DNA of 64,000 nt from Promethearchaeota archaeon (lineage in GTDB: Archaea > Asgardarchaeota > Lokiarchaeia > Sigyniarchaeales > SOKP01): positions 54,086-118,085 of the forward strand of contig JAHLWP010000010.1 in the NCBI GenBank assembly GCA_019057865.1, in the 5' to 3' direction. This document shows, piece by piece, positions 58,120-63,809 of this stretch. Both the position numbers and the translations under genes were made by a program. Under the pieces are notes generated by a model. It was not told where the DNA came from and did not search any database. It worked only from the letters and a program-made list of their open reading frames with translations. Positions within the stretch are counted from its first letter, which is position 1. Every line of letters starts with the position of its first letter.

Positions 58120-58300
58120 AATAATTCAAAATATTCTATTATAATTCTTTATATAATGACAGTTATACTGATGGGTATCAAAAAGATAATTAAACTTTTA
58201 ATTATTTGTGTTTACTTTTATAGCTAATTAAAAACACAAAATTAATAATTTATTCATTTTTACTATCTTTAAATAAATGCCTCCGTAGCTTAGCGGTATA

Positions 58301-58330
58301 ACTACTATTATTTTATAATCGCAGGACTAT
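58301..58330 (+). other. tRNA intron at position 23/24 (D-arm), 30 nt, relaxed BHB
   Basis: GGUA-UA^A-CUACUAUUA(UUUUA)UAAUCGCAG-GACU-AU^G. Removal restores the D stem. Confidence 0.75.
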
Positions 58331-58366
58331 GCATCCGACTTGTAATCGGAAGGTCGGGGGTTCAAA

Positions 58367-58395
58367 ATGACAATGCATTCGCATTGTAATGAAAA
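58367..58395 (+). other. tRNA intron at position 59/60 (T-loop), 29 nt, canonical BHB
   Basis: GGGGG-UUCA-AA^A-UGACAAUGC(AUUC)GCAUUGUAA-UGAA-AA^U-CCCCC. Confidence 0.92.
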
Positions 58396-58601
58396 TCCCC
58401 CCGGGGGCTTCTATATTTTATGATGAATACTATTTAACATTTTTCTGGATTATGTTGATTATGGCTGGAATTCAATTTCTAAGTTTTCTAATATTTAAAA
58501 CGATCAACAGAAAAGAATATGAACATAAACATATTTTAAAGAAATACAATATAATACAATAAAATCTCAATTATTTCCATAGCTCCCATTTTTAATTTAT
58601 T

Positions 58602-62612: not shown

Positions 62613-63809
62613 TCACCTCATAGGTTCTTTTCCTAATATTAGTATTTCTGTCCAAAGTGAACCGCCAAATCCCATTGCTAAAGCATTTTCTGCATCAGGT
62701 ACTTGACGTTTTTCACCTCTGCCCATTACTTGAGTTGCTGCCTCAGCTACTCGAATTAATGCTGTAGCACCTATAGGATTAGTACTCAATACACCTCCCG
62801 ATGGATTAACTGGTAATTCTCCACTCATTTCAGTAATTCCCTCATCTAACAACTTCCCTCCTTCACCAAATTTAGCAAATCCTAGGGCTTCTGTCCATGC
62901 TAATTCGCTCCAACTTGTGGGTTCATATATTTCAGCGACATCTAAATCTTTTATTGGATTAGTGATTCCTGCTTTTTTATAAGCTTTCTTTGAAGCAATC
63001 GTAGCTGTAGGGAGATTATACATTGCATCATCAGTCCCAAAGGTATAATAATGAGCAGTTTCTAAGGCTTTAAACCATGCCGGATTATCTGTTATCTTCT
63101 TAGCTTCTTCTTTATTTGCATAAATTAGAGCACATGCTCCTTCACTCTGTGGACAGCAATCATGTAATCTTAATGGATATGATATCATCTGTGAACTCAT
63201 AACATAATCTACAGTAATATCAGGCATTTGTAGATGTGCAAATGGATTATTAGCGGCATTACGACGATTTTTTACAGTAACTTTTGCTGCTTGTTCTGGT
63301 GTTGCGCCATATTTATCTTGATACATAGATGCCATAAGGGCTAGTGGACCGAGAGCACCAGCTAAAGATGGTCTTTCCCATACCGGATCAAATGCTGTTA
63401 TTATACCGGTAGTAGCTCCACCTTCTTTTAATTTTTCCCAACCAACAACTAAAACCTTGTTATAAATTCCTGAGGCAACATTGTGATAACCACATATAGC
63501 TAAGGAACTACCCGTTGTGCCACCTGTTGCAACCTTAACTACAGGTTTTAAATATCCAGGAGCTCCTTCAATTCCACAGAATAATTCAGAGAAATTAATT
63601 CCTTCAAAATGGTCCATTTAGTATTTAATCTCGAGATGAAATTAAATATTACCAATGACGATCGCATCAATCTCTTTAGGTTCAAGTTGAGCATCATCAA
63701 GAGCCATCTTTACGGCTTCGTATACCATCTCAGGGATATTAACATCTCTTCTCTTACTCCTAAATTTAGTCTGACCTATGCCGACTACGGCTACATCATG
63801 TCTCGGCGT
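62613..63809 (-). CDS. Thiolase-superfamily (SCP-x/Ltp-like) protein, 2 exons (63809-63648, 63617-62613), 388 aa after removing one predicted BHB intron
   Basis: Exon 1 reads (ACG)PRHDVAVVGIGQTKF...DAQLEPKEIDAIVIGN and joins MDHFEGIN... of ORF 62613..63617. VKNRRNA, AEIYEP, PVNPSGG, NPIGATA. Confidence 0.88.
63618..63647 (-). other. Predicted BHB mRNA intron of thiolase 2 (30 nt)
   Basis: mRNA: GGUA-AU^A-UUUAAUUUC(AUCUC)GAGAUUAAA-UACU-AA^A-UGGAC. 9-bp intron stem; in-frame UAA. Spliced product is IGNMDHF. Confidence 0.87.

Follow-up and report, generated by a model that had tools for sequence, protein, structure and literature searches.

Transfer RNA genes interrupted by several short introns have already been described in Asgard archaea. 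A recent preprint on Asgard tRNA genes that are heavily interrupted (Goswami et al. 2026, bioRxiv 10.64898/2026.10.13.758758), which builds on Valentin-Alvarado et al. (2024, PMC11291895), reports D-arm insertions missed by tRNAscan-SE, T-arm introns at canonical BHB motifs and repeated gains; its main text centers on Jordiarchaeia and Atabeyarchaeia, and Lokiarchaeia and Promethearchaeia are unnamed there. Asgard archaea are also reported to have an (alpha-beta)2 EndA with an L1 insert, and such inserts have been linked to the recognition and cleavage of relaxed motifs (Kaneta 2018, PMC5829648).

The tRNA-Thr(UGU) gene examined here resembles these systems (Goswami et al. 2026; PMC11291895; PMC5829648) in its Asgard host, in carrying several short introns, in a D-arm insertion that escapes annotators alongside a T-arm intron at a canonical BHB motif, in two EndA paralogues of predicted (alpha-beta)2 type, and in intron presence or absence that varies among close relatives. 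It differs from those of the Goswami preprint in belonging to a Promethearchaeota family and in its intron length, about 28-32 nt in this gene family against a median of 22-23 nt there. Interrupted Asgard tRNA genes are thus a kind already published, of which this gene is a further, very clean case. A second point of reference is the 2007 description of archaeal non-canonical tRNA introns, on which we draw as far as it is cited in the Goswami preprint: the likenesses are D-arm and T-loop sites, the combination of strict hBHBh' and relaxed HBh' motifs, and the need for an (alpha-beta)2 EndA that has the L1/CSL loop, while the differences are another phylum, a mesophile-like genome of 29% G+C, and the finding of no extra copy of either intron in the present genome.

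Locus and gene structure

The window (the whole 64,000-nt stretch of DNA that was analyzed, C7:54086-118085) belongs to a genome (G000) of 4.26 Mb in 87 contigs, with 29% G+C, whose assembly has a completeness of 99.67% and an estimated contamination of 5%. At 58279-58409 on the + strand lies a tRNA-Thr(UGU) gene in three exons, with the D arm and the T loop each interrupted:

58279-58300, + strand: exon 1, 22 nt, Sprinzl 1-23 with position 17 absent
58301-58330, + strand: intron 1, 30 nt, at Sprinzl 23/24 in the D arm, predicted relaxed HBh' motif
58331-58366, + strand: exon 2, 36 nt, Sprinzl 24-59
58367-58395, + strand: intron 2, 29 nt, at Sprinzl 59/60 in the T loop, predicted strict hBHBh' motif
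58396-58409, + strand: exon 3, 14 nt, comprising T60, the T-stem 3' strand CCCCC, the acceptor 3' strand CGGGGGC and the discriminator T73

Exon 1 holds the acceptor 5' strand GCCTCCG, U8 and A9, the D-stem 5' strand GCTT, the D-loop AGCGGTA, and T22 and A23. Exon 2 continues with G24, C25 and A26, the anticodon arm, the variable loop AGGTC, the T-stem 5' strand GGGGG and the T-loop TTCAAA, and is 100% identical in several congeneric genomes; CCA is not encoded. A 5-bp stem closes the 7-nt loop that holds the anticodon UGU (TCCGA CTTGTAA TCGGA), and since this loop is unbroken there is no 37/38 intron. The conserved cloverleaf positions U8, A14, G18 and G19, A21, U33, G53, T54, T55, C56, A58 and C61 are all present in the spliced product. 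The discriminator U73 and the acceptor sequence GCCTCYG are common to the Thr(UGU), Thr(GGU) and Thr(CGU) genes of the genome, so that Thr-type identity elements are in place and aminoacylation is predicted.

Run on the window as it stands, neither ARAGORN nor Rfam at its gathering score called any tRNA, and with permissive thresholds the interrupted locus reaches 22 bits on RF00005, under the 29-bit gathering cut-off. When both introns are removed, ARAGORN returns tRNA-Thr(tgt); when just one of the two is removed, it makes no call. The initial annotation had placed a tRNA-Thr(UGU) gene here with introns at 23/24 and 59/60 and none at 37/38, and had warned that standard finders may miss it. 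Coordinates, + strand and ARAGORN product all agree with that reading, and the silence of both programs bears out the warning.

The tRNA gene is flanked by a gene for a 114-aa protein with no assigned family, on the - strand, and one for a 524-aa type I phosphodiesterase-like protein, on the + strand. A 57-codon ORF (58389-58562, + strand) overlaps its 3' end and is most likely spurious.

Splice junctions and intron motifs

Junctions were sought by genome-wide enumeration of acceptor-stem pairs and all BHB-like segments, followed by ARAGORN and a cloverleaf score. The cloverleaf score was added because ARAGORN accepts many odd products, and the BHB score alone ranked splice solutions too ambiguously. 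By cloverleaf and BHB together, the top solution at this locus is the removal of raw positions 23-52 and 89-117. The D-arm cut thus falls after raw nucleotide 22; since position 17 is absent, this nucleotide is Sprinzl 23. A run of A leaves the intron 2 junction ambiguous by sequence alone, and BHB geometry places it at 59/60.

Intron 2 has the features of a strict hBHBh' archaeal intron, to which class we assign it from its pairing. The T stem supplies an outer helix of 5 bp, the T-loop sequence TTCA pairs with intron TGAA in a central helix of 4/4 Watson-Crick pairs, the bulges read AA|A and AA|T, and nine positions make up the inner helix TGACAATGC/GCATTGTAA, G x A being the one mismatch among them. 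Against shuffled sequences the local fold gives z = -4.25. In all 19 T-loop introns parsed from relatives' Thr genes, the four central positions all pair and the outer helix has 4-5 pairs. This is the geometry of the canonical archaeal 37/38 intron, with a 5-bp stem as the outer helix, the first four loop nucleotides in the central helix, and cuts after loop nucleotide 6 and before loop nucleotide 7; the difference is that intron 2 lies on the T arm and not on the anticodon arm, in a gene without a 37/38 intron.

At least six further tRNA genes of the genome also have a T-loop intron of 29-32 nt, placed at 59/60 or right beside it, for example on C5 (Arg CCU), C41 (Gln UUG), C87 (Gln CUG) and C18 (- strand, near 87745), and at C23:182370-182502 and C23:194835-194958. 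Because of this recurrence, the 59/60 region can be regarded as a hot spot.

Intron 1 is of a different kind. Relaxed HBh' introns were defined by a central helix, one proper 3-nt bulge, an intron helix h' and a second cut 2 nt beyond the central helix, with no exon helix h, and all of these are seen in intron 1. Its central helix joins D-loop GGTA to intron GACT with 3/4 pairs, and the constant A x G mismatch there puts it at the weak end of the class. The 5' cut lies inside the proper bulge TA|A, the inner hairpin CTACTATTAT/ATAATCGCAG has 10 positions with two mismatches, and the 3' cut follows AT (AT|G), 2 nt beyond the central helix, the outer helix being absent. We therefore read intron 1 as a probable relaxed HBh' archaeal intron, for which cleavage by EndA and ligation by RtcB are predicted.

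Taken by itself, this D-arm motif is weak. Motifs of the relaxed class are noted to occur by chance at many boundaries (Goswami et al. 2026), and thermodynamics alone lends intron 1 no support, because the D-arm motif is missing from the MFE fold of the full-length precursor and the local fold is no better than shuffles (z = +0.52). The case for it comes from orthologue comparison and covariation. In seven orthologues the intron is exactly 30 nt long and aligns without gaps, with the HBh' layout in 7/7; both sides have changed in 6/13 pairs, and 86.8% of cells pair in the stated structure, compared with 23-53% when the partner is slid. In a shuffle test the observed value was reached by 0/500 for four of five measures and by 1/500 for the fifth, counts that are to be taken as support and not as probabilities, the seven sequences being kin.

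The exact register of the D-arm cut deserves separate consideration. Cutting one base later, after raw nucleotide 23, would remove 29 nt and leave a 73-nt body with the D-stem strand TAAGC; this product is also valid for ARAGORN, gains a U13-A22 pair, and is in a register that scoring slightly prefers for three orthologues. The 29-nt cut, however, leaves an extra A in the product and pairs only 2/4 central positions, both as G-U. Only the 30-nt cut yields a product identical to the uninterrupted orthologues (GGTATA|GCATCC), with the D arm GCTT AGCGGTA TAGC that these and the Thr(CGU) gene of the same genome all share, and it is this register that gives one HBh' layout throughout the seven orthologues. 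We consider the later cut, or removal of the insert by an activity other than EndA, very unlikely. With the 30-nt register, pairing geometry and orthologues bear out the earlier expectation that one of the two introns is strict (intron 2, hBHBh') and the other relaxed (intron 1, HBh').

Comparison across the family

The 131-nt gene was compared by BLAST with 135 genomes of the same GTDB family. However many introns the tRNA gene has in a relative, homologues of both flanking genes lie on either side of it, and for this reason we treat these loci as orthologous. Within this single family, the syntenic Thr(UGU) gene ranges from uninterrupted to doubly interrupted, with about six different intron sites in all:

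Uninterrupted gene: for example L008, L012-L016, L021-L023 and L025-L027
One intron at 14/15: L007, L009, L010 and L017
One intron at or adjoining 23/24: L006, L018, L020 and L040
One intron at 29/30: L024, L028, L029, L038, L042, L043, L045 and L050
One T-loop intron: L019
Two introns: L001-L005, L031 and L039

A congeneric genome carries, at L008:1479-1550, an uninterrupted gene with exactly the sequence predicted for the spliced product; this gene reaches 73.5 bits on RF00005, and its first 22 nt are those of exon 1. The two-intron layout is kept in three other genomes at 80-97% identity. As judged from sequence, chance is excluded as the source of the twice-interrupted pattern, because the exons have 59% G+C in a region of about 28%, and because the locus shares product sequence and synteny with an intact gene elsewhere. 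The zero-, one- and two-intron states of one syntenic gene offer material for the study of intron gain and loss, as well as a benchmark for tRNA finders that miss D-arm introns.

Across the family's Thr(UGU) and Thr(CGU) genes (loci L001-L050), about 60 introns were parsed, nearly all of 28-32 nt at any position, with sites at 14/15, 20/21, 23/24, 27/28, 29/30, 31/32, 58/59 and 59/60.

Most relatives have a single syntenic copy of the Thr(UGU) gene, and some have two (G029 and G057). Both copies in G029, a genome of another genus, are interrupted (G029:C380:2375-2505 and G029:C203:525-656). One of them, on a 4-kb contig, is 95% identical to the G000 gene, introns included, which suggests a mis-binned contig or a recent transfer.

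Gene number and codon demand

The initial annotation had made the gene's value as a control depend on its being the cell's only tRNA-Thr(UGU), and no other is detectable in the assembly by 5' exon, anticodon-arm or enumeration searches. A Thr-type 5' exon occurs at three loci only, C7 (UGU), C39:493 (GGU) and C75:124715 (CGU), and among intact UGU anticodon arms the one on C7 alone stands in a tRNA context. BLAST with the whole gene gave no second match in the genome among the matches listed, down to about E 0.003, and the multi-intron loci that lack a firm call all have A73, where the three Thr genes have U73.

Two candidates for a further gene were rejected. The locus C75:64734-64836, labeled Thr(tgt) by ARAGORN -i, is a class II tRNA-Ser(UGA) with a long variable arm, G73 and a 19-nt 37/38 intron, after whose removal the loop reads CTTGAGA; the mislabel is a trap when Thr(UGU) genes are counted. 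The multi-intron locus C39:611-744, which has a low-scoring TGT alternative, reads by eye as tRNA-Met(CAU) with A73.

Codon usage places a demand on the gene. ACA makes up 40% of Thr codons and 18.6 per 1000 codons in 966 long ORFs. Under standard wobble rules, ACA is read by neither a GGU nor a CGU anticodon, so a Thr(UGU) gene is needed, and the one described here is very probably essential.

The sensitivity of our tRNA pipeline was incomplete, since about ten expected anticodons were missed by it. Together, pipeline and Infernal recovered about 36 anticodons, without Ala(GGC), Arg(GCG), Arg(CCG), Asn, Ile(CAU), one Met, Pro(GGG), Pro(CGG) and Trp. The missed genes are probably hidden by acceptor-stem or T-stem introns, or by three or more introns. 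Possible hiding loci include C41:57843-57998, C60:35717-35851 and C69:10645-10799 (in the orientation of the search script). Only about 12 tRNA genes in the genome are uninterrupted.

A second, uninterrupted tRNA-Thr(UGU) gene could lie in the unassembled part of the genome, which would make the locus dispensable and leave it with little to say about obligatory splicing. The assembly is a draft with some estimated contamination, and two copies do exist in some relatives; against this stand its near-complete status, the whole-gene BLAST result within the matches listed, the single syntenic copy of most relatives, and the interruption of both copies in G029, which together make such a gene highly improbable. 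That the locus is a decaying pseudogene with two acquired insertions and no working tRNA, as the absence of a call by standard finders and the low RF00005 score might suggest, is hardly credible given that its exons match intact orthologues base for base, the cut points set by the splice-motif geometry of both inserts restore the exact orthologue sequence, the intron helices covary, no other gene found can read ACA, and the two-intron layout persists in three other genomes.

We hold it to be highly probable that the locus is the functional, only-found tRNA-Thr(UGU) gene of this Promethearchaeota (Loki-type Asgard) archaeon and that both introns are spliced. The sequence anatomy, the match of the predicted product with an identical uninterrupted orthologue, the conserved gene neighborhood, the covarying intron helices, the enzyme genes and the finding of no other Thr(UGU) gene were obtained directly; transcription, both cleavages and their order we infer from sequence.

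Splicing machinery and proposed processing

Two EndA paralogues are encoded in the genome. The first, of 200 aa on C71, matches catalytic alpha subunits from crenarchaeal heterotetramers, namely that of A. pernix (3p1z_B, E 3e-35) and also those of S. tokodaii and P. aerophilum, retains the catalytic Tyr, His and Lys, and aligns without gaps to 3p1z_B through the loop named L1 by Kaneta et al. The second, of 207 aa on C69, has Ser in the place of the catalytic His of M. jannaschii EndA, a replacement that fits a structural beta subunit, which this protein would then be. Together they have the features of a two-subunit (alpha-beta)2 EndA with the L1 (Crenarchaea-specific) loop, and a heterotetramer is predicted. 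An RtcB gene is also present.

With these enzymes, the following route can be proposed. The locus would be transcribed as a precursor of about 131 nt that contains both introns. In the strict T-stem motif at 59/60, EndA would cut after the second nucleotide of each 3-nt bulge; it would also cut the relaxed HBh' motif of the D arm at 23/24, where D-loop GGTA is expected to pair with the 3' end of the intron. RtcB would then join the three exons into a 72-nt body, to which CCA would be added afterwards.

Relation to protein-gene inserts

On this reading of the gene, ACA can be read only after the excision of two introns of about 30 nt, the first at a relaxed and the second at a strict motif. The gene could accordingly serve as a built-in positive control for the claim that similar inserts of about 30 nt in protein genes are spliced from mRNA.

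The one such insert examined, at 63618-63647 on the - strand, is 30 nt long. It has a GGTA/TACT central helix with 4/4 pairs, a bulge AT|A, a 9-bp hairpin and AA|A at the 3' cut, with no outer helix. The HBh' layout of intron 1 matches that of this insert, so the proposal in the initial annotation that tRNA introns and mRNA inserts are of the same design holds for the pair compared, and a design shared by intron 1 and the protein-gene insert is supported at the level of predicted structure.

A shared origin of the tRNA introns and the protein-gene inserts is not supported. When the two tRNA introns were compared with the genome by BLAST, short AT-rich matches were the only hits, with no further copy of either intron and hence no sign of recent transposition within the genome. 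That the D-arm HBh' intron and the inserts of about 30 nt form one class of element, processed by the same EndA and RtcB and spread by a common route, we consider doubtful. If it were true, tRNA genes and mRNAs of Promethearchaeota would share one intron pool, and tRNA-Thr(UGU) would be an obligatory substrate that keeps relaxed-motif splicing under selection.

A likeness between introns of two isoacceptor genes was seen within the family. The 59/60 intron of the Thr(CGU) gene at L011 (G059:C29), ATGACAAACAACTCGCTTTGCTATGAAAA, is about 70% identical, by manual count, to the 59/60 intron of Thr(UGU), which hints at a common origin in the two isoacceptors or at gene conversion.
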